This document shows, in pieces, positions 1 to 62,245 of a stretch of 64,000 bases of DNA. Below the pieces are notes generated by a model. That model had not been told where the DNA came from. It did not search any database and saw only the letters and a program-made list of their open reading frames with translations. Position numbers and translations under genes: made by a program. The first letter of the stretch is position 1, and each line of letters begins with the position of its first letter. The DNA is from Candidatus Latescibacterota bacterium. Its GTDB lineage: Bacteria > Latescibacterota > UBA2968 > GCA-2709665. Location: assembly GCA_965248435.1 (NCBI GenBank), contig OZ252100.1, positions 5,312,001 to 5,376,000 of the forward strand, written 5' to 3'.

Positions 1-1932
1 TCTCTGCACCGAATTACGAGTGATCCGTACGACGAAAAACACCTCGATTGGTCTCCGGATGGCGAATGGATTGCCATCAGTTCAGATCGGCCCAGTGTGG
101 GCATGGCGTTCGAAGAGGGAAAAGACTTCGCCTTTGGCCAGTACGACATCTTCCTACTCCGCCCGGACGGATCCGAGATGCGTCGCGTGGTTTCGGGCGA
201 AGCCACGGATATAGATCCTTCCTGGGGGCCTGATGGAAAGAAGCTGGCCTTTGTTTCCGACCGAACTGGGGTGAAGAACGCCTTCGTCGTCGAACTTGCC
301 GATTCTTCAATTTACCCTGTCACCAATCTCCTTTCAGGGGCTAAATATCTGGACTGGTCGGCAGATGGCAAGAAAATGGCATTTACGTCATTTCATAAAG
401 GTGGATTCGACGTCTTCGTGTTGAAGGATCCCCTTGAAAATAGGAAGAAAATGGAGGATCTTCCTTTGACTCGGTTCGCAAAGCGAACAAAGGGCATCGA
501 TGACAAGTCTTTTGTCGAGCTTCAGCGAGAGCATGAGAAAGAGAAGAAGAAGCAAGCGGAAGCAGCCTTGGAATCCGAGAAGCCCGAAGAGGTCCAGGTC
601 AACGAGGAGACTTCCGATACTACCCTGATCGAACGAAAAATCGAGAAGTGGGTTTCTGATCAGATGCTGCTTGCTGCTGCAGAATCAGAAGTCGTTCCCG
701 ATACAGAGCAGAAGGAAGAAGCTGATGCTGACACCAGTGGGATCCAGGACCAACTCCAGCCATCCTTGAAAGATTGGAACAAGGAATTCCAGGTCCACAA
801 ATACAAAGTTCAGTTCAAGCCCGAGATTTTTTCTGCGAACGCGGGGTTCGACACATTCTACGGTGTCAGCAGTCTGGTCTCGCTCTCTTTGAGTGATGTG
901 CTGGGCGACCACCGTTTGATCATACAGACCGGCCTGAGCTTTTCGCTCAAAGACAGCGACTTATTCGTAACGTATGCGAATCTGAAGCGTCAGACGAATT
1001 ACTATGCGCAGGTCTTTCATACGAGACTCTTCTTCTTCAGCAACAACGTCCTGAATGCGGACCGATACTATGGCCTGGTGTTGGGGATTGAAAAACCCTT
1101 CAACCGGTTTAGCCGTTTCGAGGGGGGTGCACGATTCATCACCATCTCAAGAGAGCGGCTGGACACCTTTAACAACCAATTCGTGCGCGGTGGTTTCGTG
1201 GGCGGGACGACTCGAGGCCTTAATGGGACGCCAATCGCGACGGAGCGGTCCTTAATCTCGGAAGTGGCATTGGTGGACGACAGTACGATGTGGGGACTCT
1301 ACGGTCCGGTCGACGGACGCAGGGCTCGGATCTCTTTCGAGGGGAGTGCTGCCGGGATGAAGTTCGGCACGGCTCGCATGGATTTGCGTAAATATTTCCG
1401 GGTGCTCAAGGAGTATACGTTCGCACTGCGACTCGCAGGCGGGGCGAGTTTCGGACGAAACAAAGAGGTCTTCTACGTCGGAGGGGTGAACAACCCGGTC
1501 AATCCGAGGTTCTCCACCGCGAGTACTAATGTGGATCCCAACAGGGTCGGTTTCTCCAGTTTCGTTTGGCCGCTGAGGGGCGTAGAGCTGTTTGACCTGG
1601 CCGGAGATAGCTTTGTCCTGGCGAATGTCGCGTTTCGATTTCCTTTGCTCCACAAGTTGGCGATGGGATGGCCGTTGCCCTTCCTTTTCCAGAACGTCCA
1701 GGGCGAGCTCTTCCTCGACGTCGGGAGCGCCTTTAATCGGGATGGCTTTAATCCCTGGGAATATCGGGACGGAGGTTTCGAACTTCGGGACCTCAAGGCG
1801 GGCTACGGACTGGGTGCACGGGTGAATCTGGGCATTTTCCTCTTCCGATACGATCTGGCCTGGCCGACCGATTTCGCTCAGACCTTCAGTCCCTTGCAGT
1901 ACTTCTCTGTCGATGTGACCGGTCTGTTTTAA
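1..1932 (+). CDS. PD40/TolB-like beta-propeller + Omp85/BamA-like C-terminal barrel protein (5' end outside window)
   Basis: Frame open from base 1; repeated WSPDG/WGPDG/WSADG PD40 motifs; C-terminus with FYVGG, PLRG, GYGLGARVNLG...RYDLAWP and terminal Phe typical of Omp85 barrels. Confidence 0.8.
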   Translation, partial: SLHRITSDPYDEKHLDWSPDGEWIAISSDRPSVGMAFEEGKDFAFGQYDIFLLRPDGSEMRRVVSGEATDIDPSWGPDGKKLAFVSDRTGVKNAFVVELADSSIYPVTNLLSGAKYLDWSADGKKMAFTSFHKGGFDVFVLKDPLENRKKMEDLPLTRFAKRTKGIDDKSFVELQREHEKEKKKQAEAALESEKPEEVQVNEETSDTTLIERKIEKWVSDQMLLAAAESEVVPDTEQKEEADADTSGIQDQLQPSLKDWNKEFQVHKYKVQFKPEIFSANAGFDTFYGVSSLVSLSLSDVLGDHRLIIQTGLSFSLKDSDLFVTYANLKRQTNYYAQVFHTRLFFFSNNVLNADRYYGLVLGIEKPFNRFSRFEGGARFITISRERLDTFNNQFVRGGFVGGTTRGLNGTPIATERSLISEVALVDDSTMWGLYGPVDGRRARISFEGSAAGMKFGTARMDLRKYFRVLKEYTFALRLAGGASFGRNKEVFYVGGVNNPVNPRFSTASTNVDPNRVGFSSFVWPLRGVELFDLAGDSFVLANVAFRFPLLHKLAMGWPLPFLFQNVQGELFLDVGSAFNRDGFNPWEYRDGGFELRDLKAGYGLGARVNLGIFLFRYDLAWPTDFAQTFSPLQYFSVDVTGLF

Positions 1933-2189
1933 CGTGTAACCTCAACACGGTGGCGGCGTGGCAGCAGCATCTGGTCTTCAGCCGGGACAGAAATCCAGAA
2001 TCTGTTCTCATTGCGGGTGTGGGATTCCCGCAAAGGTATCAACCTGCGACTTCTGTGGTGGGAGTCTGGATCCAGTTACGTCGAAAGGTGAGGGAGTATG
2101 CTGGAGTTGTCGTATCGTGGCGGGAATCTCTGGTCTGATTCTCCTGGTTGGGCTGGCGATGTTTCTGTTTCAGACCAGCCAGCCCTGAG
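669..2189 (+). repeat. Left copy of ~1.52 kb direct repeat flanking the island
   Basis: Matches 60725-62245 (offset 60056) with about 20 substitutions seen by eye; ends exactly at the IS3 end at 2190. Confidence 0.95.
1958..2188 (+). CDS. Small Zn-ribbon membrane protein
   Basis: CxxC...CxxC plus CWSC and C-terminal hydrophobic helix; conserved in second copy 62014-62244. Confidence 0.6.
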   Translation: MAAASGLQPGQKSRICSHCGCGIPAKVSTCDFCGGSLDPVTSKGEGVCWSCRIVAGISGLILLVGLAMFLFQTSQP

Positions 2190-2219
2190 TGATGTGGCCT
2201 TGAAAAAGTGGACGGTGAA

Positions 2220-3065
2220 CTAAGCCGCTTTTTGGTGTTCGAAGGCGGCTGGAGATACGTAATCCAAAGACGCGTGCAGCCGCTGGTTGTTGTAGAAGAC
2301 CTCGATGTATTCGAAGAGTTCTGGCTCGGCGTGCTCGAGGTCGTCCAGGTCGATGTGGTAAGCCCACTCGGTCTTGAGGGACCGGAAAAGGGACTCGGAC
2401 ACTGCGTTGTCCCAGCAGTTCCCCTTTCGGCTCATGCTCTGGACGAACCCATATTCGGCGATCTTTTCCCGGAACCCCTCGCAGCAGTATTGGATGCCGC
2501 GGTCGGAGTGGATCATCAGCCCCTTTGGCGGACGCCGGGCACGGATAGCACGCGAGAGCGCCTTGAGGACCATCTCGTGCCGCAGGCTGGTGCTCACGCA
2601 CCACCCGACGATGCGCCGCGAGAACAGGTCGATGAAGACCGCCAGATACAACCAGCCAGCCTTGCTCGGCAGATACGTAATGTCGCTGGCCCACACCCTG
2701 TTCGGCGCGTCGATGTCAAAATTGCGATCCAGCAGGTTCGGCGCCGCAGCCAGATGGTGATTCGAGTCCGTTGTGGCCCTGAACTTCCGTGCGACCTTCG
2801 ACCGCAGGCCCTGCCGGCGCATCGATTGGGCAACTCGCGTGCGGCTGCACGGATGGCACTGGCCGGTCAAATACCGGGCGATCTTCGTGCTGCCGTAGCG
2901 AGCTTTGTGCGCCTCGAACGCCGCTCTGACTCGGGCGTCCAGAAGCCGCCGGGCCCTCTTTCTGGCGCTCTCGGGCCGCAGCAGCCAGGCATAGAAACCG
3001 CTCTTGGATACCTCCAGGACCTTCGCCATCCTCTCCACCGAAAATTCCCAGCGGTGGTCCCTCAT
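2220..3065 (-). CDS. IS3 transposase OrfB (DDE)
   Basis: WASDITY, HSDRG, CWDNAVSES motifs. Confidence 0.95.
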   Translation of the reverse strand: MRDHRWEFSVERMAKVLEVSKSGFYAWLLRPESARKRARRLLDARVRAAFEAHKARYGSTKIARYLTGQCHPCSRTRVAQSMRRQGLRSKVARKFRATTDSNHHLAAAPNLLDRNFDIDAPNRVWASDITYLPSKAGWLYLAVFIDLFSRRIVGWCVSTSLRHEMVLKALSRAIRARRPPKGLMIHSDRGIQYCCEGFREKIAEYGFVQSMSRKGNCWDNAVSESLFRSLKTEWAYHIDLDDLEHAEPELFEYIEVFYNNQRLHASLDYVSPAAFEHQKAA

Positions 3066-3376
3066 GAACCGGAACCGGCTTTCGGTGTCTTTGAAAAGAT
3101 GGCGACTGCTTTTTTTAGGATGTCCCGTTCCTCACGAGCGATCTCCAGCTCGCGACGCAGACGGCGGTTCTCCTCCTCCAGGGGCTTCTGGTGCCCCGTA
3201 CCCGGGAAGGACTCTTCAGGGTCGGCTTCAAGTTCCTTGCGCCACGTGCGGATCGCTCCCTGGTACAGCCCCAGGTCTCGCTCTACCTGCCGATCCGTCA
3301 CGTCGCCGGCATCCGCGATCCGGACTGCTTCACGCTTGAAATCGGAATCAAATGTCCGTTTCGGTTTCCCTTTCAT
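3062..3376 (-). CDS. IS3 transposase OrfA (HTH)
   Basis: FKREAV...ERDILKKA; GGAGG RBS. Confidence 0.9.
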   Translation of the reverse strand: MKGKPKRTFDSDFKREAVRIADAGDVTDRQVERDLGLYQGAIRTWRKELEADPEESFPGTGHQKPLEEENRRLRRELEIAREERDILKKAVAIFSKTPKAGSGS

Positions 3377-3439
3377 AGACACACCTCCTGACGGAAGATA
3401 CTTTGGTTCTCGGTGTGTCCACAATTTCAAAACGCCTCA

Positions 3440-3753
3440 AGGGGGCTGTTCACCTTTTACGATTTCCCGGCCGCTCCCTGGCGACACCTCCGGTCCACCA
3501 ATCCCATCGAATCCACCTTCAGCACCGTTCGAGACCGCACACGCCAGACCAAAGGATGCGGCTCTCGAAATGCCACGATGATGATGGTCTACAAACTGGC
3601 AGACCAAGCCCAAAAACACTGGCACAGATTACACAGTCACAAACTCATTGAACTCGTCGTCCAAGGCGTCGAATTCCAGGATGGAGACGTTAAAGCCGCA
3701 GCTTAATCCATCAGGATCCGCTCCCCGCCATCCACAACATTTGACAATATCTC
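3440..3753 (+). pseudogene. IS256-family transposase 3' remnant with right end
   Basis: LFTFYDFPAAPWRHLRSTNPIESTFSTVR motif; ends ACAACATTTGACAATATCTC. Confidence 0.8.
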
Positions 3754-3880
3754 GTTGCGCTATCTGGCGAGGAATCGCTACAACAGTAATCTTCTTGTTG
3801 AAAAGCAGAAAAACCGGAAAAACAGAGAAAGTGATGTCCGCTCCTTTATTCCATTCCTGATGACAAAAAACAACACGGAC

Positions 3881-3984
3881 GCTTAACACGCGATGCCCGC
3901 TACACTCCCTTCGGTCATTCGGCCCTCCGGGCACATTACCTCCGCTACGCTCCGGCAACGTCGGGTATCGCGAGGCCGTTAACG
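3881..3984 (+). repeat. attC-like site
   Basis: GCTTAAC...GTTAACG with inner arms CGCGATGCCCG / CGGGTATCGCG; next gene starts 34 bp later. Confidence 0.8.
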
Positions 3985-4017
3985 GAAATCGCCCCTACCA
4001 CCCCAAAGGAGGGAAAA

Positions 4018-5331
4018 ATGAAACTCTGGGTATTCACCTGCAGTGACAGCCCGTTCGAACACTGGCTCGACGGGTTCGAGGAGCGGTTCGACGCCTGGGC
4101 GGATAGCGGCGTGCGCGGTCTGGCCGTCGGCCGCATGGCATTCCTCCAAGAGGATGGCACCGCCATTCCGGCGTGGGCTCCCGACCCGAAGGTGTACGAG
4201 GCCCTGGGGGCGGAAGTCCCGGAGCAGCGTCCGCGCGACCTCTCAAAAGAGAAGAAGCTGCACGCAATGCTGGACAACGCCGCGGAGCGGGGCTGGCGAC
4301 TACTGATTTTCGCCGGAGGCGGCCCGACCGCCCACGTGCAGGACCAAATGAACGCCTTTCCACAGGTGCACGGCGTCATTGTCGACGGTCCGGGCGAAAA
4401 CCACTACGAGCTGGCCTTCCACCACGGGGGCGAGCTCCTGGAGATCCGTCCGGGTGAGGAGGGCCGCTTCGCCCAGGTCGGCGCCGAGATTGATCGAATA
4501 CAACGCGGCATCACCCACTTTCGGGAGCGTTTGCACAATCTGACACCGGAAATGGTGCGGTACCACGCCGACGGGGGGATGCTGGGGGCAATGCTCCTGT
4601 TCGACGTCAACGAGGACGTGCTCTACTGGCTGCGCAAGCGGCAGGAGCTCTCTCGCTTCGACTGGCAGTACATGCGGCAACAGGTCGACGCCGTCGATCG
4701 CAAGGTGGAGTTGGGCGGTATCCCGCGGGCCGTGACGTGGTCATCGCTCACCGGACAGAATTACTGTCAGATGGCGGAGTATTTCGACTATATCTTTCCG
4801 AAACACTATTTTTGGCACCGCGGCATGGACGGCATGTACGGAACCATATCCCGCTGGGTAAGACGATTGCGAAAGTGGAATCCGTCCCTGAGCGAGGCGG
4901 AGTGTTTCGCTGTAGTGAAGGCGCTGTTGGGCATCGAGCTGCCTGGCATCAACTCGCTTATGGACATGGAGATGGGTTTCCCCGACGAATTCTTCTCCAG
5001 GGTGGTCTACAACGAGACTCGGCGGGCCCTGGCGGCCATAGGTGATCCCGACAAGGTGATAGCCTGGGTGTCCACGGGGCGCCGCCCCCACGGCGGCGAC
5101 CCGATGCAGGCGCGCGATCTCTACGGCATCCTGACTGCTTCGCAGGAGGCGGGGTTGAAGCGCTTCCTATACCATCCCGAGCCGGATTTCAGGGCGGCGG
5201 AATGGACCATCATCTCGTCGCTGTGCGGAAACCAATGGGATGAAGACGCCGACGGGTACTGGCCGACGGGGACCGACAAGCCAGGCGTCTGGGACGGCGG
5301 GCGCGAGGTACCCGAAGGGGGCCGAATATGA
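4018..5331 (+). CDS. Hypothetical protein (possible TIM-barrel), cassette-like
   Basis: 437 aa ORF, strong GGAGG RBS, coherent codon usage; directly follows attC. Confidence 0.75.
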   Translation: MKLWVFTCSDSPFEHWLDGFEERFDAWADSGVRGLAVGRMAFLQEDGTAIPAWAPDPKVYEALGAEVPEQRPRDLSKEKKLHAMLDNAAERGWRLLIFAGGGPTAHVQDQMNAFPQVHGVIVDGPGENHYELAFHHGGELLEIRPGEEGRFAQVGAEIDRIQRGITHFRERLHNLTPEMVRYHADGGMLGAMLLFDVNEDVLYWLRKRQELSRFDWQYMRQQVDAVDRKVELGGIPRAVTWSSLTGQNYCQMAEYFDYIFPKHYFWHRGMDGMYGTISRWVRRLRKWNPSLSEAECFAVVKALLGIELPGINSLMDMEMGFPDEFFSRVVYNETRRALAAIGDPDKVIAWVSTGRRPHGGDPMQARDLYGILTASQEAGLKRFLYHPEPDFRAAEWTIISSLCGNQWDEDADGYWPTGTDKPGVWDGGREVPEGGRI

Positions 5332-5445
5332 GCAAGATCTCTGACTCGTTGCGGGAGGGTTTCCCGCGGGCGCGAACGATAAGCGGCAAAAACTGAAGGC
5401 GCGCAAGAACCACTGCCTGCCACCTCGAAATTTTGGAGATGTGAA

Positions 5446-5843
5446 ATGAATGATTCCCCGTCATACTCAGTTGCGGTAATTGCAGATATTCACGGCAACG
5501 TCGCTGCACTCAACGCTGTTCTTGAGGATCTGCAAAGCCAACCCTATGATCGTCTGGTGGTCGCCGGCGACCTGGTGCTGAACGGACCCCGCCCGGTCGA
5601 GAGTCTTGACGCGATACGAAATCTGGGCGCTCCCACGATTTACGGGAACGCAGACCTGTTGGTCTTTGATGAACAGTATTCCGAGGAAAGACTGGACTGG
5701 GTGAGAGAGAAGCTGGGAACAGATGGCTTGAGCTATCTGAAGGGTCTGCCCTTTGAGTACAGGATAACGCCACCGGGAGGGCAGTCTCCGGAGGATGATC
5801 TTCTCATTGTGCACGCAACGCCTACTGATGTGACCGGTATGTA
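5446..5843 (+). pseudogene. Metallophosphoesterase, 5' part (IS3-interrupted)
   Basis: ADIHGN, GDLV, GNAD, VHAT motifs; cut by IS at 5844. Confidence 0.85.
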
Positions 5844-5906
5844 TGAGGCGTTTTGAAATTGTGGACACACCGAGAACCAAAGTATCTTCCGTCAGGAGGT
5901 GTGTCT

Positions 5907-6221
5907 ATGAAAGGGAAACCGAAACGGACATTTGATTCCGATTTCAAGCGTGAAGCAGTCCGGATCGCGGATGCCGGCGACGTGACGGATCGGCAGGTAG
6001 AGCGAGACCTGGGGCTGTACCAGGGAGCGATCCGCACGTGGCGCAAGGAACTTGAAGCCGACCCTGAAGAGTCCTTCCCGGGTACGGGGCACCAGAAGCC
6101 CCTGGAGGAGGAGAACCGCCGTCTGCGTCGCGAGCTGGAGATCGCTCGTGAGGAACGGGACATCCTAAAAAAAGCAGTCGCCATCTTTTCAAAGACACCG
6201 AAAGCCGGTTCCGGTTCATGA
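5907..6221 (+). CDS. IS3 transposase OrfA
   Basis: Identical to copy 1 OrfA. Confidence 0.9.
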   Translation: MKGKPKRTFDSDFKREAVRIADAGDVTDRQVERDLGLYQGAIRTWRKELEADPEESFPGTGHQKPLEEENRRLRRELEIAREERDILKKAVAIFSKTPKAGSGS

Positions 6222-7063
6222 GGGACCACCGCTGGGAATTTTCGGTGGAGAGGATGGCGAAGGTCCTGGAGGTATCCAAGAGCGGTTTCTATGCCTGGCT
6301 GCTGCGGCCCGAGAGCGCCAGAAAGAGGGCCCGGCGGCTTCTGGACGCCCGAGTCAGAGCGGCGTTCGAGGCGCACAAAGCTCGCTACGGCAGCACGAAG
6401 ATCGCCCGGTATTTGACCGGCCAGGGCCATCCGTGCAGCCGCACGCGAGTTGCCCAATCGATGCGCCGGCAGGGCCTGCGGTCGAAGGTCGCACGGAAGT
6501 TCAGGGCCACAACGGACTCGAATCACCATCTGGCTGCGGCGCCGAACCTGCTGGATCGCAATTTTGACATCGACGCGCCGAACAGGGTGTGGGCCAGCGA
6601 CATTACGTATCTGCCGAGCAAGGCTGGCTGGTTGTATCTGGCGGTCTTCATCGACCTGTTCTCGCGGCGCATCGTCGGGTGGTGCGTGAGCACCAGCCTG
6701 CGGCACGAGATGGTCCTCAAGGCGCTCTCGCGTGCTATCCGTGCCCGGCGTCCGCCAAAGGGGCTGATGATCCACTCCGACCGCGGCATCCAATACTGCT
6801 GCGAGGGGTTCCGGGAAAAGATCGCCGAATATGGGTTCGTCCAGAGCATGAGCCGAAAGGGGAACTGCTGGGACAACGCAGTGTCCGAGTCCCTTTTCCG
6901 GTCCCTCAAGACCGAGTGGGCTTACCACATCGACCTGGACGACCTCGAGCACGCCGAGCCAGAACTCTTCGAATACATCGAGGTCTTCTACAACAACCAG
7001 CGGCTGCACGCGTCTTTGGATTACGTATCTCCAGCCGCCTTCGAACACCAAAAAGCGGCTTAG
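6218..7063 (+). CDS. IS3 transposase OrfB
   Basis: DDE motifs. Confidence 0.95.
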   Translation: MRDHRWEFSVERMAKVLEVSKSGFYAWLLRPESARKRARRLLDARVRAAFEAHKARYGSTKIARYLTGQGHPCSRTRVAQSMRRQGLRSKVARKFRATTDSNHHLAAAPNLLDRNFDIDAPNRVWASDITYLPSKAGWLYLAVFIDLFSRRIVGWCVSTSLRHEMVLKALSRAIRARRPPKGLMIHSDRGIQYCCEGFREKIAEYGFVQSMSRKGNCWDNAVSESLFRSLKTEWAYHIDLDDLEHAEPELFEYIEVFYNNQRLHASLDYVSPAAFEHQKAA

Positions 7064-7093
7064 TTCACCGTCCACTTTTTCAAGGCCACATCA

Positions 7094-7433
7094 GTTCAGT
7101 CTTCGGACGGTTACTCCGGAAGAGGAAGCCAGGACATTGCTGGGGGATGCGGAGGCCAATCTGATTGTGGCAGGACACCTTCACTACGCGTCCTATGGCG
7201 TTCCGTGCGGTCAGCGATATAGCATCATTGATTCAGTTGGGTTTCCGTTTGATGGGGATCATCAAGTTGGATATGCCAGAGTGTGGTGGGATGGGCAGGA
7301 ATGGCTTGTGGAAAACCACAGATTAAGTTACGATTACCACAAGGTTGTGGAGGATGTCAGGTGTTGTGGTGCGCCTTTTGGTGAGTTGTCAGCCAAAAGG
7401 ATCCTTCAAGCCAGATTCAGGCCGGTCATGTAG
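7094..7433 (+). pseudogene. Metallophosphoesterase, 3' part
   Basis: GHLH and SVGFPFDGD motifs complete the fold begun at 5446. Confidence 0.8.
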
Positions 7434-7439
7434 AATCAG

Positions 7440-7521
7440 AAGCCTGATGGTGCGCGCTTTATCTCTGCCCGTGATAGGCTTCGCCGTGATGGGGCTGCCA
7501 GCGGTTTACAGGCCGTTATGC
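7440..7521 (+). repeat. Degenerate attC-like site
   Basis: Ends GGCCGTTATGC like other sites; left arm not recognisable. Confidence 0.4.
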
Positions 7522-7548
7522 GAAGCGGCGAAAAGGAAATAAAGCGCC

Positions 7549-8199
7549 ATGCTGAATGCCATTCTTTGGGACAACGACGGCGTCCTGGTCGACACCGAAG
7601 GCCTGTACTTCCAGGCCTGCCGCGAAACCCTGGAACGCCTCGGCGTCCGCCTGAGCGAAGCCCGTTTCATCGAGCTCTTCCTCAAGGCCAGCGAAGGCCT
7701 TACCAGGATCGCCGCCGAACACCGCATAGACGAACAGGCGCTGGAGCCCGCCCGCATCTGGCGCAACGCCCGCTACACCGAACTGTTGCGCGCCGGCGTA
7801 CCCGTCATCGACGGCGCCCGCCAGGTGCTGCACCAACTCCACGGCACGGTGCGCATGGGCATCGTCACCAGTTCGCGGCGGGAGCACTTTGAGATCATCC
7901 ACGCCGCCACCGGCCTGCTGGACTGCATCGATTTCACGCTCGTGCGCGAAGACTACCGGCATTCCAAGCCCGACCCCGAGCCCTACCTCACGGCCATGCG
8001 GCAAAACGGCCTCAGCGCCGCCGAATGCGTCGTAATCGAAGACTCGGACCGGGGGCTGCGCGCCGCACTGGCGGCCGGGCTGCGCTGCATCGTCATACCG
8101 CAGGGCCTGACGCGCGGCCTGGACTTCACCGGCGCCCTGCGGCAACTGACCGATATCCGTCAGGTCCCACCGCTGATCCATGAACTTATGCAAACTTAG
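7549..8199 (+). CDS. HAD-superfamily hydrolase (CbbY/beta-PGM-like)
   Basis: DNDGVLVD, KPDPEPY, IEDSDRG motifs. Confidence 0.9.
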   Translation: MLNAILWDNDGVLVDTEGLYFQACRETLERLGVRLSEARFIELFLKASEGLTRIAAEHRIDEQALEPARIWRNARYTELLRAGVPVIDGARQVLHQLHGTVRMGIVTSSRREHFEIIHAATGLLDCIDFTLVREDYRHSKPDPEPYLTAMRQNGLSAAECVVIEDSDRGLRAALAAGLRCIVIPQGLTRGLDFTGALRQLTDIRQVPPLIHELMQT

Positions 8200-8279
8200 T
8201 ACTGTTTCAATTAAGTTTCTTGCGTTCAATCCCACCCGTTACGGACGAAAAGCTTGAGGGGTAGGATTTGAAAATCAAA

Positions 8280-8762: not shown

Positions 8763-8814
8763 ACGTGTCGAACCGCGTTACGTTGCGGGCGATACAATTT
8801 GGGTATCGCACGTC

Positions 8815-8911
8815 AGATAACAGCACAGTTTGCGCTGCTGCTGCGGTCGCCGCCTTGGCCATCGGCAACGCCTCGTCAGCTCGGCCCTCGCAAACCGGCA
8901 TAACGTTAACA
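8815..8911 (+). repeat. attC-like site
   Basis: AGATAAC...GTTTGCG...CGCAAAC...AACGTTAACA. Confidence 0.75.
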
Positions 8912-53016: not shown

Positions 53017-53131
53017 CTCTTCGTTTCCCTTCGTAGGAACAATCTTCGTGACAGAAAGATGAGTGTCCAATGAGAACTTATGGGAGTATCACTACTAAGA
53101 ACCAAGCTTCGATTTCAAATCGGTGTCGAAT

Positions 53132-53938: not shown

Positions 53939-54633
53939 GCACCCGATTCTTGAAATCGTTTCTATTCTGTCATAGCTATTGCCTCATCCTCCTCTAGGGG
54001 AAAGAATGCGCGTAGACTCACGCAAAGACCATCAGAAACTTTACCCATGGTTTCCAACCTGCTGTTAACGTCACCCCGCTCAATCTGACCTCGATACTTC
54101 CCCGGAGGATTTTGCTCAACTGCTTAGGCGATTTGGAATCGAAGACGCTGTTCTCTGGGTTCTTGAGCATATGGATCGGACACTGAATACTGGTATAGTT
54201 CCCTCACTTAATTTGCATTCATGTCTAAGTGAGTCTTGGCTAGCCAGTGCGTATGCCCTAGCGGTAAACTGCGCGGTTGGAACGGGACAATGCGTAAGCG
54301 ACTTCATTACAAGAAGCGTCGAGAGATTCTCGTGGAATCGTCTCCAAACAGTGGGGCTCCCCCCGGCCCTGTATCTGAGTAAGGAAGTCATAATAATCTG
54401 GCCAACGTCTTAATCAAGATTGTGGAGAAGAATCCAGTATATGCATTGTTAATTCGCCGCTAGATCGCCCCTTTGGCTTTGCTTGGTTACGGACCCAGGG
54501 GTCCGAATTCCTTTGGAGCAACCCTACCGCCGTTCACATCTCTTCAAACTGAGGAGTTAAGGTTTTCACCTCCCTTTCGGCTCTGGACACCGCAGGGGGA
54601 GCGACACTGAAGAAATCTCGGGCTCACACTCAA

Positions 54634-54854
54634 ATGGCCGCAAGAACCCATTCGGAACTGTTGAAGCGCTATCTGGGCTCCCAGAAACAGAAAGTAGCTA
54701 TACTGCTTGTATTACTGCTGGGAAACGCCACGCTCTTGCTTATTTATCCCCAAATTATCCGCACTTTCATCGACACTGCCAAAAGTGGTGGGTCACTGTC
54801 GACGCTAACTCAACTTTCCATTTTGTTTATTGTTCTAGTCATCGTGCGACAAGG
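54634..54854 (+). pseudogene. ABC transporter permease/ATPase N-terminus truncated by IS3
   Basis: LLKRYL...PQIIRTFID transmembrane start. Confidence 0.7.
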
Positions 54855-56104
54855 TGAGGCGTTTTGAAATTGTGGACACACCGAGAACCAAAGTATCTTC
54901 CGTCAGGAGGTGTGTCTATGAAAGGGAAACCGAAACGGACATTTGATTCCGATTTCAAGCGTGAAGCAGTCCGGATCGCGGATGCCGGCGACGTGACGGA
55001 TCGGCAGGTAGAGCGAGACCTGGGGCTGTACCAGGGAGCGATCCGCACGTGGCGCAAGGAACTTGAAGCCGACCCTGAAGAGTCCTTCCCGGGTACGGGG
55101 CACCAGAAGCCCCTGGAGGAGGAGAACCGCCGTCTGCGTCGCGAGCTGGAGATCGCTCGTGAGGAACGGGACATCCTAAAAAAAGCAGTCGCCATCTTTT
55201 CAAAGACACCGAAAGCCGGTTCCGGTTCATGAGGGACCACCGCTGGGAATTTTCGGTGGAGAGGATGGCGAAGGTCCTGGAGGTATCCAAGAGCGGTTTC
55301 TATGCCTGGCTGCTGCGGCCCGAGAGCGCCAGAAAGAGGGCCCGGCGGCTTCTGGACGCCCGAGTCAGAGCGGCGTTCGAGGCGCACAAAGCTCGCTACG
55401 GCAGCACGAAGATCGCCCGGTATTTGACCGGCCAGTGCCATCCGTGCAGCCGCACGCGAGTTGCCCAATCAATGCGCCGGCAGGGCCTGCGGTCGAAGGT
55501 CGCACGGAAGTTCAGGGCCACAACGGACTCGAATCACCATCTGGCTGCGGCGCCGAACCTGCTGGATCGCAATTTTGACATCGACGCGCCGAACAGGGTG
55601 TGGGCCAGCGACATTACGTATCTGCCGAGCAAGGCTGGCTGGTTGTATCTGGCGGTCTTCATCGACCTGTTCTCGCGGCGCATCGTCGGGTGGTGCGTGA
55701 GCACCAGCCTGCGGCACGAGATGGTCCTCAAGGCGCTCTCGCGTGCTATCCGTGCCCGGCGTCCGCCAAAGGGGCTGATGATCCACTCCGACCGCGGCAT
55801 CCAATACTGCTGCGAGGGGTTCCGGGAAAAGATCGCCGAATATGGGTTCGTCCAGAGCATGAGCCGAAAGGGGAACTGCTGGGACAACGCAGTGTCCGAG
55901 TCCCTTTTCCGGTCCCTCAAGACCGAGTGGGCTTACCACATCGACCTGGACGACCTCGAGCACGCCGAGCCAGAACTCTTCGAATACATCGAGGTCTTCT
56001 ACAACAACCAGCGGCTGCACGCGTCTTTGGATTACGTATCTCCAGCCGCCTTCGAACACCAAAAAGCGGCTTAGTTCACCGTCCACTTTTTCAAGGCCAC
56101 ATCA
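54855..56104 (+). mobile_element. IS3-family element A, copy 4
   Basis: OrfA 54918-55232, OrfB 55229-56074. Confidence 0.95.
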
Positions 56105-56329
56105 CAATTCGTCGGATCGCTAATCGTAGACAGAGATTTCAAATGCTGTCAGGATGGATTTGGGCAAGATACACCGGATGCTGGCAGGCCTTGCTGCACG
56201 TTTTGGAGACCGAGTTACACGCAAACGGCAAGAAACTAAATGGGCACAAAATTCTCCTTGCTTCAAGGTCACGCCCTCCATGTATGCCCTTTAATCTTGA
56301 ATTAACCCCGCAGCCACAGGGGAGGAAGT

Positions 56330-56995
56330 ATGCAGGAACTCAATATTGAAGCTTTTTTTTCAGTTCCGAAAATCGATTCTCCGCCTGCGCGATATTATAA
56401 AGACACACATAGAGACGAATTCCAGTTCTGCAAAGACGAGACCGGTGTAGAAGGGCTTGTAATGGAGTTCGGGGTCTTCGAAGGTAAAAGCATCAACGAT
56501 ATCGCACGCGTTTGGACCGATCAGCAAGTTTACGGTTTTGACAGTTTTGAGGGGCTACCTGAAGATTGGGATATGGGAGATGGCGTAGTATTTACAAAGG
56601 ACAGGTTTTTTAACGCAGGGGGCGTTTTGCCCGACGTACCCGATCATGTGACGTTAATAAAAGGCTTCTTTGACGCAAGCTTGCCGGGTTGGTGGAACGC
56701 AAATAAAAACCCAATTTCATTTTTAAATATTGATTCCGACCTTTATTCTTCTGCAATCTTCATTTTAGAGACACTAAATGACTACCTGTTACCTGGTGCG
56801 ATTGTGCGGTTCGACGAACTATGTGATTGGCGACTTTTCGATCCCCGGGAAACGCGCCCGCCAAAACATAAATATTACACTTGGGCTGAAAATGAATGGA
56901 AAGCCCTAAACGAATGGATTTCCAAATACGACCGGGAAGTCGCACCTTTAGCTCGCAACTACGCATTTTCGAGTATCGTACGAATCATAAAATGA
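56330..56995 (+). CDS. TylF/MycF-like O-methyltransferase
   Basis: EFGVFEG, GFDSFEGLPEDW, IDSDLYSS, FDE. Confidence 0.85.
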   Translation: MQELNIEAFFSVPKIDSPPARYYKDTHRDEFQFCKDETGVEGLVMEFGVFEGKSINDIARVWTDQQVYGFDSFEGLPEDWDMGDGVVFTKDRFFNAGGVLPDVPDHVTLIKGFFDASLPGWWNANKNPISFLNIDSDLYSSAIFILETLNDYLLPGAIVRFDELCDWRLFDPRETRPPKHKYYTWAENEWKALNEWISKYDREVAPLARNYAFSSIVRIIK

Positions 56996-57021
56996 CTTAT
57001 GGTGTGCCAGGGGCAGTCAGC

Positions 57022-57142
57022 GCGTAACAGGCAGTTTGTACGTCAGTCGCTTCGCTTCTTCGGCATGGCGGAAACCCCGGCTCCACACAACAATCCTAAC
57101 CCCACTCACGCCGGAGTCACAAACTGCCCAGACGCGTTACAC
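57022..57142 (+). repeat. attC-like site
   Basis: GCGTAACAGGCAGTTTGT...ACAAACTGCCCAGACGCGTTACAC. Confidence 0.8.
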
Positions 57143-57199
57143 GCAAGCACCCCACGGAACCACAGAACCAAGAAGCTGCCATTTCTGGGAGGTACTGAA

Positions 57200-58018
57200 A
57201 TGAAGCGCGGGCAATTGGCGAAGGTCCACAGAATCAGATCCGAATCCGGGTACGAGGTCATCCGTAAGGAAATGACTTCGATCGATTTCCTGAAGAGGCA
57301 CCTGAAGGTGATGGACCAACTCAAGGAGACTGGCATAGTCCCAGTACTGGTCAGCGTCGATGAGGCGAAGATTGCCCTTGAATACGAATTTGTAGATGGC
57401 AGGCATATCGATGAAATAGAAGAAGCCGAGCATGATCAAGTCTTCCGCATGGCAGGAGTCGTTCTGGCTCAGATGCACACCCATCATCTAGACGGCTTTG
57501 GAGTAGTTGACAACCTTAAGAAGGCAGAATCAGACTGGTGGTCTATCCAAGATGAGCGAATTGATCGGAAGCTATCGGTTTGCCTGGAATTCAAGACCCT
57601 GGAACAGCGGGAAGCAGACCGACTACGCGACATCTACTTCGAGCTTAGATCGTCTCTATCCGAGGAACACGAGTCTTGTCTAAGTCATTGCGACTACCGA
57701 TCGGACAATCTTCTTTTCATGAAGATGAAAGGCAATTGGAAGTGCATCGTCATAGATTTCGATCACGCTCAAGGAGCTCCTGCGCACTTCGACTTCGGTA
57801 GAATACAACTTGACCTGTTCGACCGTTGGCCAACACACAGAGACTCTTTCTGCCTAGGATACGAGAGCGTAAGACCATTGCCCAATCTGGCTGGAACACT
57901 ACCCGTCTACAGGATCCTATGGCCGCTCGACCTGTTGGCGTGGGGTTCCATCAATAAGGCTGAAGGTCTCACAAGTCGCATGAAACGACTGCTGGAAACA
58001 GAAAACGATCTGATTTAA
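57200..58018 (+). CDS. APH-family phosphotransferase, paralog of 53132-53938
   Basis: HCDYRSDNLL, IDFD; GGAGG RBS before ATG 57200. Confidence 0.85.
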   Translation: MKRGQLAKVHRIRSESGYEVIRKEMTSIDFLKRHLKVMDQLKETGIVPVLVSVDEAKIALEYEFVDGRHIDEIEEAEHDQVFRMAGVVLAQMHTHHLDGFGVVDNLKKAESDWWSIQDERIDRKLSVCLEFKTLEQREADRLRDIYFELRSSLSEEHESCLSHCDYRSDNLLFMKMKGNWKCIVIDFDHAQGAPAHFDFGRIQLDLFDRWPTHRDSFCLGYESVRPLPNLAGTLPVYRILWPLDLLAWGSINKAEGLTSRMKRLLETENDLI

Positions 58019-58085
58019 GGCGTGGGCAACCGGCGAATAAAACAAGAGGGCGCGCACAACCATCGCCTGCATTCAGGACGAGAGG

Positions 58086-58512
58086 TTGGTGCGCAATCGA
58101 GTCCCTTACCTAGCTTACAAGGCCTTTCAGTTCAATACTTGGAAGTCGGGAGTCCGGTGTTGGGAAGAAATGTCGCGCATCTTGGTAAAGAACGGTTTGT
58201 TCCTGCTCGTGATACTGTCAACAAGCCGAGACATCCCTCAGGGGAGCAAAGATGATCCCAGACATTGGCACAACTTTCCTCTCGCCAATTGAACATAAGA
58301 GAGGTATCACCTACCACCACTACTCGAAAGGAGAAGTTGAAGAGCTAAGAGTCAGGAACGTGTTGAGGATAATCGACGCACACGAGTCTACGGCGATTAG
58401 GACGGATGAACTAGATGGTCACAGGGTATGTGGAATTGAAGTTACTTTTATGCCACCTATGATTCTCGAAATGCCCAAGGAGGTGCCATACACTTATGAA
58501 ACTGATTACTGA
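58086..58512 (+). pseudogene. Methyltransferase-like C-terminal remnant
   Basis: EMSRILVKNGLFLL then frameshift to HHYSKGEVEEL. Confidence 0.4.
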
Positions 58513-59461
58513 ACGTGTACCCGAAGAACTAACTCCCAAACATGGCATGAAGTTAACCCCTGAACAAAGCGAGTTACTACCATCTGAGGAGGAGATAGCC
58601 CACTATAATGAGCATGGCTGGTACATATCGAAAGAGATTCTATCTGACGCTGAGATTGAAGATGCTTTTGCTGGTAGCGAACGTCATTACTCAGGTGAGC
58701 GTGACTATAGTCTTCCTATTCAAATTAGGAGTTTCTTAGATTGGACACCTGAGAAAGGAGAGGGACTACGGCTTAATGATTACATTGTAATACAGAATTT
58801 GCAAATACAAAAATTGGCATTTAATGCGCTAATAGGGGCGATTGCGTCACGCCTTTCCGGCAGTGATCGAATAAGGCTTTGGAATAGCCAGCTTATTTAT
58901 AAACCCTCCCAAGTTCAAGATGACAGGGTGAAGATTGGATGGCATGTCGATCGCGCTTACTGGAGGACTTGCACATCCGATCGAATGCTAACTGCCTGGA
59001 TTCCCTTACATGATTGTGATGAGACCACGGGAACCATGATAATGCTTGACGGTAGCCATCGGTGGCCTAGTAATGCGTCAGTGGATGAATTGAGAAGGGG
59101 GAAGACTTTCCTTATTCACGCGATTCCCGAGAGCTCTATATGTTCAGATGCATCCGAATTAGAAGCCAGGATTAGTTCATGTGGAATGCCGATCAACAAA
59201 GTGCCCATGAATCTTCATGCTGGACAAGTATGTTTTCATAATTGTCTTACATTTCATGGTAGTGGCCTGAATCGGAGTACAACAGACCGTCGTGTGGTTG
59301 TTATTCATCTGCAAGATGGAGAGAACAGATATAGAGTCTCTAAAGATGAGTCTGGCGAAGTCCATAGATATAACAACGATCTGATGTGTAGAAAATTGTC
59401 GGACGGCAGTCCGGATTATTCAGATCCTATCATATGTCCACTGTTGTGGGAGAATAAATGA
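58496..59461 (+). CDS. Phytanoyl-CoA dioxygenase (PhyH) family protein
   Basis: WHVD, TAWIPL, GSHRW, FHGSG..N. Confidence 0.9.
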   Translation: MKLITERVPEELTPKHGMKLTPEQSELLPSEEEIAHYNEHGWYISKEILSDAEIEDAFAGSERHYSGERDYSLPIQIRSFLDWTPEKGEGLRLNDYIVIQNLQIQKLAFNALIGAIASRLSGSDRIRLWNSQLIYKPSQVQDDRVKIGWHVDRAYWRTCTSDRMLTAWIPLHDCDETTGTMIMLDGSHRWPSNASVDELRRGKTFLIHAIPESSICSDASELEARISSCGMPINKVPMNLHAGQVCFHNCLTFHGSGLNRSTTDRRVVVIHLQDGENRYRVSKDESGEVHRYNNDLMCRKLSDGSPDYSDPIICPLLWENK

Positions 59462-60175
59462 CGCCGGGCAATTTTGGTGCCTTGGCAAAGTCTGGGGTTT
59501 GATTGGACACTCAGCGAGCAGTAAGAATGTTAGATATTTCTTTTCTAAAGGGCTGTCTAATTTCCATATTTGGACCAACTCCTAACGAGTCCGTTTTCGA
59601 AGTGGATGTAGAATAGGGTTCGCCGCTTCATTGCGCCTGTATACCCACTGTTCAGTCGTGGCCCAGGCGCCCGTCGTCTCGTTTATGGTTGTAGGAGTAC
59701 CCCAGCAAGCTCTTGCCTCCCTCTTTTGACATGCCCCCTCTAGCTGGCCGATCGCGAGCACGCGCCGTCGACACTCCAGATTTGTCGGAGGGTTTCCCGT
59801 TCGGTTTGTCGGGTTGATTGACGGACGTGACGATCTGGTTGGTACGAAAGATTGCAACTCCATGCCCCGAACTTAGAGGAATTGAGAAGTACTGACGCCC
59901 GGATGATTTTGGAGCATGTCGTTCCTGAAGAAGAAGAGAAGAGAGCGATCCTTCGAGGTATGAGCCAAGCTGAGGTCCACCTGACAAATCCGAAAGTCTT
60001 CTGTAATTGATTTCACGCGGTTACCCGCTCTGGACTCACCTGAATGGGCCAAATTTCCGGAAGCTTATGAGGTCAGGCAATTTACCATAAGAGATCTCAA
60101 TGGTCATAGGTTTCATTTTCACAACAGTGTTGAACTGTGAGGGAAGTCATTTATAGAATCAGTGAGCCAGGTGAC

Positions 60176-60724
60176 ATGATCGACAAACTAGATAAGAGAG
60201 AGGGAGCCCTGCTCCCACACGTCTCTCTAAGCCGTCCTGTGACGGTCACGATGTGTTTGGTGGCCCTCATGGTAGTCGGGGTGTTGGCGCTTAAACGAAT
60301 TCCGATTCAGGATTTTCCTTTTGGACTTGAGGCCAGGACAATTTCGGTATGGGTTCCTGTGCAGAGGAATACGCCAACGATAGAAAAGGATCAGTACATC
60401 GCACAGCCTATGATAGAGTACCTGAAGGCCGTAAAAGGGTTGCGGAGGCTGTGGACGAGCAGTGAAACCTGGGGCGTCCATACTCGCCTCGAGTTTCGGA
60501 ACGACATGGACATGGCCCTAGCATATGGCAAGGTAACGGAGGCAGTTGAGCTGATGAGGCCTTTGCTGCCTGAGGAGGTTCGCCAAGACATCAGAATTTG
60601 GAAATACGACAAGGATGCAGATGAGGAGATTCTCTGGATCGGCATCTCCATGCCGGATCACGTTGAAAATTACCACGATTACATACATACTACGGTGCAG
60701 CGGCCCTTGGAGCGAATTGATGGG
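60176..60724 (+). pseudogene. AcrB/AcrD/AcrF RND permease N-terminal fragment
   Basis: SLSRPVTVTM...PLERIDG; truncated by the repeat. Confidence 0.75.
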
Positions 60725-62245
60725 GCTTGCTGCTGCAGAATCGGAAGTCGTTCCCGATACAGAGCAGAAGGAAGAAGCTGATGCTGACACCAGTGGGATC
60801 CAGGACCAACTCCAGCCATCCTTGAAAGATTGGAACAAGGAATTCCAGGTCCACAAATACAAAGTTCAGTTCAAGCCCGAGATTTTTTCTGCGAACGCGG
60901 GGTTCGACACATTCTACGGTGTTAGCAGTCTGGTCTCGCTCTCTTTGAGTGATGTGCTGGGCGACCACCGTTTGATCATACAGACCGGCCTGAGCTTTTC
61001 GCTCAAAGACAGCGACTTATTCGTAACGTATGCGAATCTGAAGCGGCAGACGAATTACTATGCGCAGGTCTTTCATACGAGACTCTTCTTCTTCAGCAAC
61101 AACGTCCTGAATGCGGACCGATACTATGGCCTGGTGTTGGGGATTGAAAAACCCTTTAACCGGTTTAGCCGTTTCGAGGGGGGTGCACGATTCATCACCA
61201 TCTCAAGAGAGCGGCTGGACACCTTTAACAACCAATTCGTGCGCGGTGGTTTCGTGGGCGGGACGACTCGAGGCCTTGATGGGACGCCAATCGCGACGGA
61301 GCGGGCCTTCATCTCGGAGGTGGCATTGGTGGACGACAGTACGATGTGGGGACTCTACGGTCCGGTCGACGGACGCAGGGCTCGGATCTCTTTCGAGGGG
61401 AGTGCTGCCGGGATGAAGTTCGGCACGGCTCGCATGGATGTGCGTAAATATTTCCGGGTGCTCAAGGAGTATACGTTCGCACTACGACTCGCAGGCGGGA
61501 CGAGTTTCGGACGAAACAAAGAGGTCTTCTACGTCGGAGGGGTGAACAACCCGGTCAATCCGAGGTTCTCCACCGCGAGTACTAATGTGGATCCCAACAG
61601 GGTCGGTTTCTCCAGTTTCGTTTGGCCGCTGAGGGGCGTAGAGCTGTTTGACCTGGCCGGAGATAGCTTTGTCCTGGCGAATGTCGCGTTTCGATTTCCT
61701 TTGCTCCACCAGTTGGCGATGGGATGGCCGTTGCCCTTCTTTTTCCAGAACGTCCAGGGCGAGCTCTTCCTCGACGTCGGGAGCGCCTTCAATCGGGATG
61801 GCTTTAATCCCTGGGAATATCGGGACGGAGGTTTCGAACTTCGGGACCTCAAGGCGGGCTACGGACTGGGTGCACGGGTGAATCTGGGCATTTTCCTCTT
61901 CCGATACGATCTGGCCTGGCCGACCGATTTCGCTCAGACCTTCAGTCCCTTGCAGTACTTCTCTGTCGATGTGACCGGTCTGTTTTAACGTGTAACCTCA
62001 ACACGGTGGCGGCGTGGTAGCAGCATCTGGTCTTCAGCCGGGACAGAAATCCAGAATTTGTTCTCATTGCGGGTGTGAGATTCCCGCAAAGGTATCAACC
62101 TGCGACTTCTGTGGTGGGAGTCTGGATCCAGTTACGTCGAAAGGTGAGGGAGTATGCTGGAGTTGTCGTATCGTGGCGGGAATCTCTGGTCTGATTCTCC
62201 TGGTCGGGCTGGCGATATTTCTGTTTCAGGCCAGCCAGCCCTGAG
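60725..62245 (+). repeat. Right copy of ~1.52 kb direct repeat (headless BamA-like 3' half to 61988)
   Basis: See 669-2189. Confidence 0.95.
62014..62244 (+). CDS. Small Zn-ribbon membrane protein, second copy
   Basis: 4 aa differences from 1958-2188. Confidence 0.6.
   Translation: MVAASGLQPGQKSRICSHCGCEIPAKVSTCDFCGGSLDPVTSKGEGVCWSCRIVAGISGLILLVGLAIFLFQASQP

Follow-up and report, generated by a model that had tools for sequence, protein, structure and literature searches.

Campbell-type insertion-duplication, in which a non-replicating circle such as a suicide vector enters the chromosome by a single homologous crossover, is among the closest known processes to the one considered here. The locus that we describe resembles it in that direct repeats of host homology enclose the insert, the neighbouring genes are intact, no site-specific recombinase is needed and the repeats permit loss via homologous recombination. 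It differs in that the insert is 58.5 kb long with a 1.5-kb arm and is natural, in a marine Latescibacterota genome, in that 20 differences separate the two repeat copies A and B with no visible reciprocal switch, and in that one border is an IS3 which itself marks a recombination junction. A second process, homology-facilitated illegitimate recombination (HFIR), has been documented in Acinetobacter, Streptococcus pneumoniae and Pseudomonas stutzeri (PMC3240628, PMC5361080). Our locus is like HFIR in combining one homologous anchor, here the 3' part of a gene that we call G, with one illegitimate joint, the foreign DNA presumably coming from a linear fragment. According to PMC3240628, canonical HFIR yields deletions rather than duplications, and typically ~1 kb is inserted while ~1 kb of recipient DNA is deleted (PMC3240628, PMC5361080), whereas our locus shows duplication of recipient DNA in place of a deletion, with an insert ~60 times larger. 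In the E. coli HFIR assay described in PMC3240628, 56 of 60 recombinants were homology duplications, formed when conjugated DNA had closed into a circle again and crossed over once. A third parallel is prophage e14, inserted into the E. coli K-12 gene icd and accompanied by the 3' pseudogene icdC (PMC13626634). There, as may be the case here, the insert supplies the 3' end of the intact gene and the resident end has been moved to the far side; at both loci, losing the insert would leave a chimeric gene. In e14, a site-specific recombinase belongs to the element and the duplicated gene end is short, whereas our locus has neither recombinase nor att site but an accidental gene-gene joint. Finally, Rhs, CDI and T6SS effector genes gain a new end via homology in their conserved part and keep the old end downstream as an orphan 3' module (PMC5361080). 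Such modules carry variable toxin tips together with immunity genes and follow closely on the main gene; in our locus, by contrast, the two ends are 98.7% identical and 60 kb apart, without toxin-immunity logic. The microcin H47 island was also considered as a product of the same mechanism and set aside: although its direct repeats are long and imperfect and an integrase is lacking, it is reported to recombine by site-specific exchange in a recombination-deficient host (PMC3191183).

The window, by which we mean the whole 64,000-nt stretch of DNA analysed, contains the island, both repeat copies and the flanking genes (Table 1). The product of G has an HExxH region, propeller repeats of the TolB-like PD40 kind and, at its C terminus, a barrel of the Omp85 type. 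In an ungapped comparison at an offset of 60056, 669-2189 recurred at 60725-62245 with 98.7% identity over 1521 bp, and similarity collapsed beyond both ends; BLAST extended the repeat 6 bp leftward via a matching 4-nt GATG patch. A 1.5-kb match at this identity excludes chance, and the repeat occurs in two copies only across the 5.67-Mb genome. An initial annotation, made from the sequence alone, had put the substitutions at about 20, several of them non-synonymous. We counted exactly 20, of which 7 are synonymous, 7 non-synonymous and 6 non-coding, with 14 in the ORF portion and 6 in the 257-nt 3' non-coding tail; they approach the IS3 end to within 15 bp and the left joint to within 18 bp. 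The rest of the anatomy given in that annotation also held. The left copy ends flush with an IS3 end, a 1250-bp element of the IS3 family opening with TG... at position 2190, and the right copy starts abruptly in a truncated AcrB gene, at about codon 196 and out of frame. The upstream gene and the downstream operon both stay intact, G being full length by comparison with the 1078-aa orthologue of a sister species, as is the dapA-like gene. The truncated gene, AcrB', matches positions 4-171 of 1021 of Pfam ACR_tran. At the joint, where HFIR would be expected to show 3-10 bp of microhomology, the one match visible is the GATG patch, which lies 2 nt away.

Table 1. Coordinates of the features discussed, as positions in the window
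Feature	Position	Strand	Description
Gene G, intact	1..1932	+	begins 1298 nt ahead of the window; 1076 aa
Repeat copy A	669..2189	+	G codons ~656-1076 and 257-nt 3' tail; apparently the diverged allele
Island	2190..60724	.	58,535 bp of IS-rich accessory DNA
IS3 copy c1	2190..3439	-	1250 bp with TG...CA ends; minus-strand orfA and orfB; left island border; flanks GAG / AGG
Mutator/IS256-type transposase, last ~60 codons	3443..3625	+	truncated by c1; PF00872 positions 318-377 of 379
IS3 copy c2	5844..7093	+	inverted relative to c1; unlike flanks AAC / TAC
IS3 copy c3	37130..38379	-	unlike flanks AGG / ATC
Inverted 56-bp IS3-end fragment	38426-38481		behind c3
IS3 copy c4	54855..56104	+	inverted relative to c1; unlike flanks TTG / CCT
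AcrB'	60137..60724	+	first ~196 codons (N-terminal part) of a gene for an RND permease, broken off at the joint
Illegitimate out-of-frame joint, AcrB' to G codon ~656	60724..60725	.	crossed by one source-run contig
Repeat copy B	60725..62245	+	displaced G 3' fragment; apparently nearer the ocean-strain allele; continues unbroken into native downstream DNA
Unoccupied IS3 target CCCTGAG/GGTGAGG	62243..62248	.	equivalent of the copy A-IS3 meeting point
dapA-like (DHDPS family) gene, intact	62696..63637	+	first of the downstream block; syntenic with G in the sister species

We then compared the locus with its relatives. In two seawater strains about 98% identical to the source, X1 (on a 31.9-kb contig) and X3, the sequence runs from the 5' part of G through an intact G into the downstream DNA, and a contig from X4 starts within the repeat and continues beyond 62245 without IS3. 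In the sister species (G001), 84 bp separate the end of G from the operon, with synteny on either side. The G-operon adjacency in the two ocean strains and the sister species shows that the island is an insertion, as had been proposed; relative to this empty site, recipient DNA is duplicated and none is missing. The ocean contigs and one contig of the source run (record 6) also pass through the unoccupied IS3 target. Region 58500-60707 had no coverage in three seawater runs, which we do not take as absence of the island from the sea; our evidence from these runs is confined to contigs bridging the empty site. When metagenome contigs were scanned with the G 3' protein, only L015 and L016 were found, at 63-64% protein identity, and no conspecific strain; both were used as distant outgroups only. 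For the proteins of the flanking genes, 7 of 10 exact sequences were absent from the protein-cluster collection, and the sole downstream cluster found (P0006-P0010) gave no usable contrast between the flanks.

The island holds four IS3 copies, further IS3-family elements and IS1380-like and IS30-like elements, together with genes for a 2073-aa adhesin, sigma-factor fusions, a SIR2 protein, small-molecule-modifying enzymes and a B12-radical-SAM cluster. In 20 relatives, no counterpart of the right-hand 15 kb of this cargo was found. The IS3 copies are 99.8-100% identical to one another, compared with the 1.3% divergence between the repeat copies. Target duplications were found at none of the four copies in the window, and two copies elsewhere in the genome have GGG and AAG duplications. 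A composite-transposon pattern was not seen either: the right island end is without an IS, and no IS3 in the window has matching flanks. Behind c1, the last codons of a Mutator/IS256-type transposase gene are the sole match to that gene, the remainder being nowhere in the genome. Thus c1, at the left border, is itself a recombination or deletion junction. The island is therefore a multi-step mosaic and not a single captured unit, and its left end may have been rebuilt by later IS3-IS3 events. AGG occurs both to the right of c1 and to the left of c3, and a stop-free frame of 139+87 codons spans the virtual junction of these two flanks. We rejected this as an ancestral IS3 site, since the right flank of c1 is the Mutator-type transposase end and the left flank of c3 has no such match, and a 3-bp match among 12 cross-pairs arises by chance about 1 time in 5.

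To place the two copies, we phased them against ocean strain X1. Among the differences listed (40 of 130), 16 changes were private to copy A and 4 to copy B (binomial p=0.012), a polarity that relies on one ocean strain and presumes that the listed differences are complete for it up to 62636. At 4 sites, again among the differences listed, the ocean strains carry the letter of copy A. The sister species was used to polarise non-synonymous sites only; as an outgroup at synonymous sites it was discarded, being ~80% identical and in conflict with the ocean strain at 4 such sites. At 4 non-synonymous sites, copy A alone deviates, compared with copy B, two ENA proteins and the sister species. On this phasing against one ocean strain, and among the differences listed, copy A appears to be the diverged lineage. 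The intact copy is more altered than the orphan, which is the reverse of pseudogene decay after duplication in place, and the comparison supports the view that A and B are distinct natural alleles and not a recent in-place duplication. This part of the initial annotation, which had derived one copy from a related allele, is borne out. The internal switch expected of a single crossover was, in contrast, not seen: among the differences listed, the smallest heterogeneity p across split points was 0.25, and the posterior for a Campbell crossover gave the first 320 bp ~40%, the last 450 bp ~47% and the middle half ~13%. A crossover, if any, would therefore lie near an end of the repeat; a crossover in the middle appears disfavoured, while one near an end is allowed.

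The probable origin of the island (roughly 60%) is, in our view, a RecA-type insertion-duplication that needed no integrase, brought in DNA of a conspecific strain and left one illegitimate joint. In the order of events that we infer, about 60 kb from a diverged conspecific, with IS3 already just behind G, would have been gained through general (RecA-type) homologous recombination of the host, involving neither a site-specific recombinase nor a transposition spanning the island. The last 1.5 kb of G would have been the sole homology of the incoming DNA to the recipient, and its other end, within an RND-pump gene, would have been joined illegitimately to G at codon ~656. As an outcome, one G 3' copy would complete the gene, and the other would become an orphan 60 kb downstream, before the native dapA-like operon. 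Two routes to the joint can be proposed: either a linear fragment may have circularised and entered by a single crossover near an end of the homology (Campbell), or the non-homologous end may have been joined straight to the recipient in a one-ended, HFIR-like event. Which copy came in would depend on the position of the crossover; a crossover at the left end, or the linear route, would make copy A the incoming allele. The protein comparison points weakly in this direction, with 1-3 private changes in 437 comparable residues of the G 5' part and 4-5 in 284 of copy A. The Campbell circle favoured by the initial annotation is thus one of several routes between which these data do not discriminate, a one-ended linear event and a double crossover in IS3 and the DNA downstream being equally compatible, and overall that interpretation is partly supported. 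RecA-dependent loss via the 1.5-kb direct repeats could take place at present. It seems improbable to us that, instead of being a single scar, the gene end of 1.5 kb serves as a working attachment site for an integrase-free island that moves repeatedly. As a RecA circle or a headful-size ~60-kb fragment, such an island would pass to other strains by transformation or in transducing particles, re-enter the same gene and, on each entry, bring in a functional barrel domain of its own and displace the resident one.

The double crossover deserves separate attention. The recipient would have had G with end A, IS3 and the operon, and a linear donor would have carried IS3, the island, AcrB' joined to the G 3' end B, and the operon; exchanges in IS3 and in the downstream DNA would have brought in the island. 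The AcrB'/G joint would be an older deletion or rearrangement scar, imported along with copy B and some downstream DNA. The near-identity of the IS3 copies, and a c1 that is a recombinant or deletion junction without target duplication, are what such a history would leave, and copy B, being nearer the ocean strains, could derive from that gene pool. Legitimate double crossovers are moreover orders of magnitude commoner than HFIR (PMC3240628). Nevertheless, we regard this history as unlikely. The donor must have lost the 5' two-thirds of G and all DNA upstream of G, and the protein counts given above weakly argue that the 5' part of G does not belong to the lineage of copy A. Furthermore, divergence is steady across 1.75 kb downstream of copy B, with no visible shift of the kind that imported downstream DNA might show.

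Duplication or rearrangement in place, giving copies that were identical at first and came to differ by 1.3% through later mutation or an overwriting tract, would suit a region so rich in IS elements that promote rearrangement. Both A and B also have K903, against Q in the ocean strains and the sister species, which makes them close relatives. However, most of the private changes listed fall in the intact copy, which is under selection, and few in the orphan, and the IS copies are near-identical while the repeat copies differ by 1.3%. With differences so close to both borders, the ends of an overwriting tract must also nearly coincide with those of the repeat. Finally, AcrB' has no parent gene from which a local rearrangement could have drawn it: no DNA copy exists elsewhere in the genome, and the best paralogue is 60% identical in protein. 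We therefore hold duplication in place to be quite improbable.

The island was also searched for mobility genes. In a six-frame family search, none of the 16 tyrosine recombinase (PF00589) matches and none of the 3 serine recombinase (PF00239) matches of the genome fell inside the window, and Pfam, NCBIfam and PHROG scans of the island found no integrase, relaxase, phage or transfer genes; the earlier proposal that no dedicated integrase is involved agrees with these scans. Contig C2 (17 kb), considered as a vehicle, has nothing in common with the window or with C1. These searches weigh against the idea that the island is what remains of an integrase-driven element, comparable to e14 in icd, which carried a replacement 3' end for G and whose integrase was later lost through IS3 activity. 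Its anatomy would be the same, with an intact gene entering the element and a displaced 3' pseudogene on the far side; copy A is uniformly foreign-looking, and IS3 occupies the exact spot expected for the integrase gene. We find this very improbable, since not even a recombinase remnant was found in the six frames of the window, the far border is an out-of-frame gene-gene joint without an att core, and the repeat is as long as 1521 bp, with phage and transfer genes absent.

Read-level data were obtained from contigs of the source run. The AcrB'/G joint is bridged by record 3, which covers 58500-60773 with 0 differences at a depth of 37.5. Further contigs lead from the 5' part of G into copy A (record 4, at 40.3), from copy A to the IS3 end (record 7, at 39.2) and from copy B into downstream DNA (record 6, at 39). 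The shared interior of the repeat has a depth of 73.2, about twice that of the junctions, the island and both flanks (37.5-40.3), which indicates two copies per genome at a dosage equal to that of flanks and island. The contig over the repeat interior has the letter of copy B at 16 of 16 interior differences, so that read-level support there is for the B allele only. Contigs built from short words are unable to join the two ends of one repeat copy, and the choice between an integrated and an excised arrangement thus rests on the deposited assembly. No circle was seen among these contigs, in which its joint would equal sequence that the integrated form already contains. An assembly artefact merging two strains or alternative arrangements, for which the strain-typical size of the A/B difference and this inability to phase the ends of the repeat copies would speak, is the least credible explanation, as the AcrB'/G and A-IS3 joints are both present in reads and a strain mixture would have doubled the depth of the shared flanks, and the check for a two-strain chimera called for by the initial annotation was accordingly negative.

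In our reading, the process that the island exemplifies is a known one, and the case is well documented. In a bacterium of this little-studied marine phylum, tens of kb of accessory genes would have been gained by general recombination and one accidental end-joining, and integrase-free gain has both read-level and population-level support here. The locus, large and bordered by an IS on one side, joins the insertion-duplication scars already known. Such scars may be a practical marker of integrase-free gene gain, which tools relying on integrases or short att sites overlook. Loss of the island through the 1.5-kb repeats would be expected at a measurable rate, and every loss would leave a chimeric outer-membrane protein gene.

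Copies A and B, the two copies of the 3' end of the outer-membrane protein gene G, were compared without gaps. They match at a fixed offset of 60,056 bp with exactly 20 substitutions (98.7% identity), 14 of them in the reading frame (7 synonymous and 7 non-synonymous) and 6 in the 257-nt tail after the stop codon. The likeness stops sharply at either side, and no third copy was found across the genome (5.66 Mb and a 17-kb contig). Copy A adjoins an IS3-family element, and the corresponding point in copy B is an unoccupied target, CCCTGAG/GGTGAGG. Copy B starts directly behind a gene fragment, here called AcrB', that holds the first ~196 codons for an RND (AcrB-type) permease; since the AcrB' and G frames are out of register, the joint is an accidental fusion of two gene bodies. 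Copy B continues into native downstream DNA and then a full-length dapA-like gene. The initial annotation, which had described this anatomy and held that the upstream gene and the downstream operon stay intact, was right in all details. The architecture of G is unusual for one protein, with a signal peptide, an HExxH metallopeptidase-like region, TolB-like PD40 propeller repeats and a C-terminal Omp85-type barrel, and is kept across the family.

Features of the locus in window positions, with contigs (records) of the source-organism run X20
Feature	Position	Strand	Length	Depth	Remark
G, intact	-1298 to 1932	+	1076 aa		starts 1298 nt ahead of the window
Copy A	669-2189				final 421 codons of G and 3' tail
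IS3 copy c1	from 2190		1250 bp		left border; TG...CA ends
Island	2190-60724		58,535 bp		between copies A and B
Second IS3-family element, pieces	11925-12459, 13444-13606, 20346-20880				flank the adhesin-like ORF
Sigma region-4 fusion	12598-13200				with FliG C-terminal domain
Adhesin-like ORF	13497-19718		2073 aa		Big_12 x5, Calx-beta, He_PIG, Ca-tandemer
Tandem repeats in adhesin	15870-17321		288 bp each		five
ECF sigma fusion	23836-26163				followed by ~450 aa of ankyrin repeats
FomD-like hydrolase	30292-30777				apart from the enzyme run
Small enzyme genes	31425-36056				methyltransferases, GNAT, sulfotransferase
IS3 copy c3	37130-38379
Solo IS3 left end	38426-38481		56 bp		inverted; 46 bp past c3
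IS30-like element	40646-41676				HTH_38 and rve
Enzyme run	45339-59461				small-molecule enzymes
Copy B	60725-62245
Record 3			4.7 kb	37.5	crosses the AcrB'-G joint, zero differences
Record 4			10.7 kb	40.3	G 5' part into copy A
Record 5	60744-62204		1461 nt	73.2	shared repeat interior
Record 6			14.2 kb	39	copy B out into operon
Record 7			99 nt	39.2	copy A with three private letters into IS3 end

A search for the empty site found it in seawater metagenome contigs and in the sister species of the genus. Contigs from X1 (31.9 kb) and X3 (2.8 kb), ~98% identical, align from 60725 onward; they extend to the left into G 5' sequence, not into AcrB', and to the right through 62245 without IS3. A contig from X4 starts within the repeat and likewise crosses 62245 without IS3. 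In the sister species, 84 bp separate the end of G from the operon, and synteny holds for kilobases on either side. These results indicate that the island was inserted into a conserved junction between G and the operon.

Three elements are required by every reading of the locus: an exchange, driven by homology, with DNA from a lineage of the same species that is ~1.3% diverged; a single illegitimate joint, between AcrB' and G; and an IS3 inserted behind G in one of the two lineages. The most likely, to which we give a probability of about 0.6, is additive integration of a ~60-kb fragment. The ends of such a fragment would have lain in G and in the RND gene; the fragment could have closed to a circle and entered by a single crossover close to one end of the 1.5-kb homology, or the end without homology could have been attached directly. 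For the circle there is a direct experimental precedent: PMC3240628 reports an E. coli conjugation assay designed for homology-facilitated illegitimate recombination (HFIR) in which 56 of 60 recombinants had the homology duplicated, through one crossover by a molecule that had re-circularised, and only 4 of 60 were true HFIR, with deletions. Entry of the island by circle and single crossover is a candidate, as yet unproven. A double crossover in IS3 and in the downstream DNA, bringing in an older AcrB'-G scar, is unlikely; legitimate recombination alone would suffice for it, but a donor without most of G is also required.

The initial annotation took the two copies for related alleles, and phasing against X1 bears this out by placing them in separate lineages. 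Between X1 and copy B there are 33 differing sites within the repeat and 29 over the 1.75 kb that follow downstream; with the 40 of these 62 differences that are listed, assumed complete to 62636 and consistent with the counts, X1 carries the A letter at 4 of the 20 A/B sites (61305, 61440, 62058 and 62205) and the B letter at 16. Taking this one ocean strain as reference, private changes number 16 in copy A and 4 in copy B (binomial p=0.012), so that copy A, intact and functional, would be the more diverged lineage. Two proteins from other public assemblies agree at 6 of the 7 non-synonymous sites and split at the seventh, and at 4 of these sites copy A alone differs from copy B, both public proteins and the sister species. 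A duplication in place that diverged later is accordingly hard to credit, since decay of an orphan copy would give the opposite skew, with copy B more changed. The private changes are evenly interleaved along the repeat (smallest heterogeneity p 0.25). Under a flat prior, the posterior for the position of a Campbell crossover puts ~40% within the first 320 bp, ~47% within the last 450 bp and ~13% in the middle half; the terminal 18 + 16 bp take 15%, where the prior gives 2%; a crossover in mid-repeat is disfavoured, and one near an end is possible. In the protein comparison, private residues number 1-3 in 437 for the G 5' part and 4-5 in 284 for copy A, which weakly suggests a lineage boundary near position 669.

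We then considered the content of the island. None of the 16 PF00589 and 3 PF00239 matches of the genome, tyrosine and serine recombinases, falls in the window, even as a remnant, and Pfam, NCBIfam and PHROG scans found no relaxase, transfer or phage gene among the island ORFs. A decayed integrase-driven element is thus very improbable. The structure is genuine, and the core idea of the initial annotation, an island gained by homology without an integrase, is sound. The island is built as a mosaic. Its insertion sequences are four IS3 copies plus further IS3-family, IS1380-like and IS30-like elements, and its accessory genes include the repeat adhesin, sigma-factor fusions, a SIR2 protein, transferases (acetyl-, phospho-, nucleotidyl- and methyl-) and a cluster containing a B12-radical-SAM enzyme. 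The final 15 kb were not found in 20 relatives, save for IS3 relatives and short matches (64-72% identity, in 8 of the 20) to the first gene, a flavoprotein gene. No second DNA copy of AcrB' occurs in the genome, and its best paralogue shows 60% protein identity. Two of the six IS3 copies of the genome lie outside the window, with clean 3-bp target duplications (GGG, AAG); none of the four inside has one. The left-border copy c1 adjoins a remnant of a Mutator-type transposase gene, its final ~60 codons; the remainder of that gene was not found anywhere in the genome. This IS3 therefore marks a junction made by recombination or deletion rather than a simple insertion, indicating a multi-step history; the island was assembled over several steps.

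Other features were observed in the island. The solo IS3 end is a leftover of another rearrangement. Both sigma fusions are unusual; the ECF fusion partially matches the defence-associated sigma MzaA, and the FliG fusion has a DNA copy 89.7% identical at 959162-960018 of the source chromosome contig C1. The enzyme run comprises flavin monooxygenase-like, B12-binding radical SAM, pyruvate-kinase-barrel and NTP_transf_5 proteins, two APH-family kinases, a TylF-like O-methyltransferase and a PhyH dioxygenase; with the FomD-like hydrolase, it may form a cluster that makes or modifies a phosphonate- or aminoglycoside-like compound. The small enzyme genes have paralogous blocks, 84-88% identical, at three other places of C1 (~0.94-0.95 Mb, 2.05 Mb), and such blocks may be cassette-like units. 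The genome is very IS-rich, with more than 30 copies of the IS30-like element (~99% identity) scattered over the chromosome.

Of the words sampled from 59000-64000, 97-100% are present in public runs labelled as one organism, and contigs from X20 were placed on 58500-64000. Flanks, island and the four junctions are at one dosage (junctions 37.5-40.3) and the repeat at ~2x, as expected of one genome that carries a duplication; with two strains mixed, the shared flanks would be doubled, and these equal depths make an assembly artefact the least probable reading. Contigs built from short words do not tie the left end of a repeat copy to its right end, so that an integrated arrangement, as opposed to an excised one, rests on the deposited assembly. 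Record 5 carries the B letter at all 16 interior A/B differences, so the interior A letters are without read confirmation here; its depth lies between the estimates for no differences (~78) and for differences collapsed to one path (~67). For two copies at equal dosage, mixed letters or broken contigs are expected over the repeat interior, and record 5 shows neither; an oddity in how the contig was built, or copies that have been partly homogenised, could account for this.

Altogether, the structure works like a Campbell-type insertion-duplication, with bracketing direct repeats, native flanks intact and adjacent without the insert, and no recombinase of its own; as to the reciprocal hybrid copies of that model, private changes here are interleaved. 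It shares with HFIR the logic of an anchor and an illegitimate joint, but the usual coupling to deletion is absent. Like e14 in icd, as described in PMC13626634, the insert completes an intact gene and displaces a 3' pseudogene, although the recombinase that defines such elements is missing. It also resembles the orphan 3' modules found behind Rhs, CDI and T6SS genes (PMC5361080). The 1.5-kb repeats would now allow RecA-dependent deletion of the island, with a chimeric G as the product, by analogy with the repeat-mediated deletions yielding chimeric genes in evolving E. coli that PMC13626634 describes. The case is a large, unusually well-supported example of an already known process.
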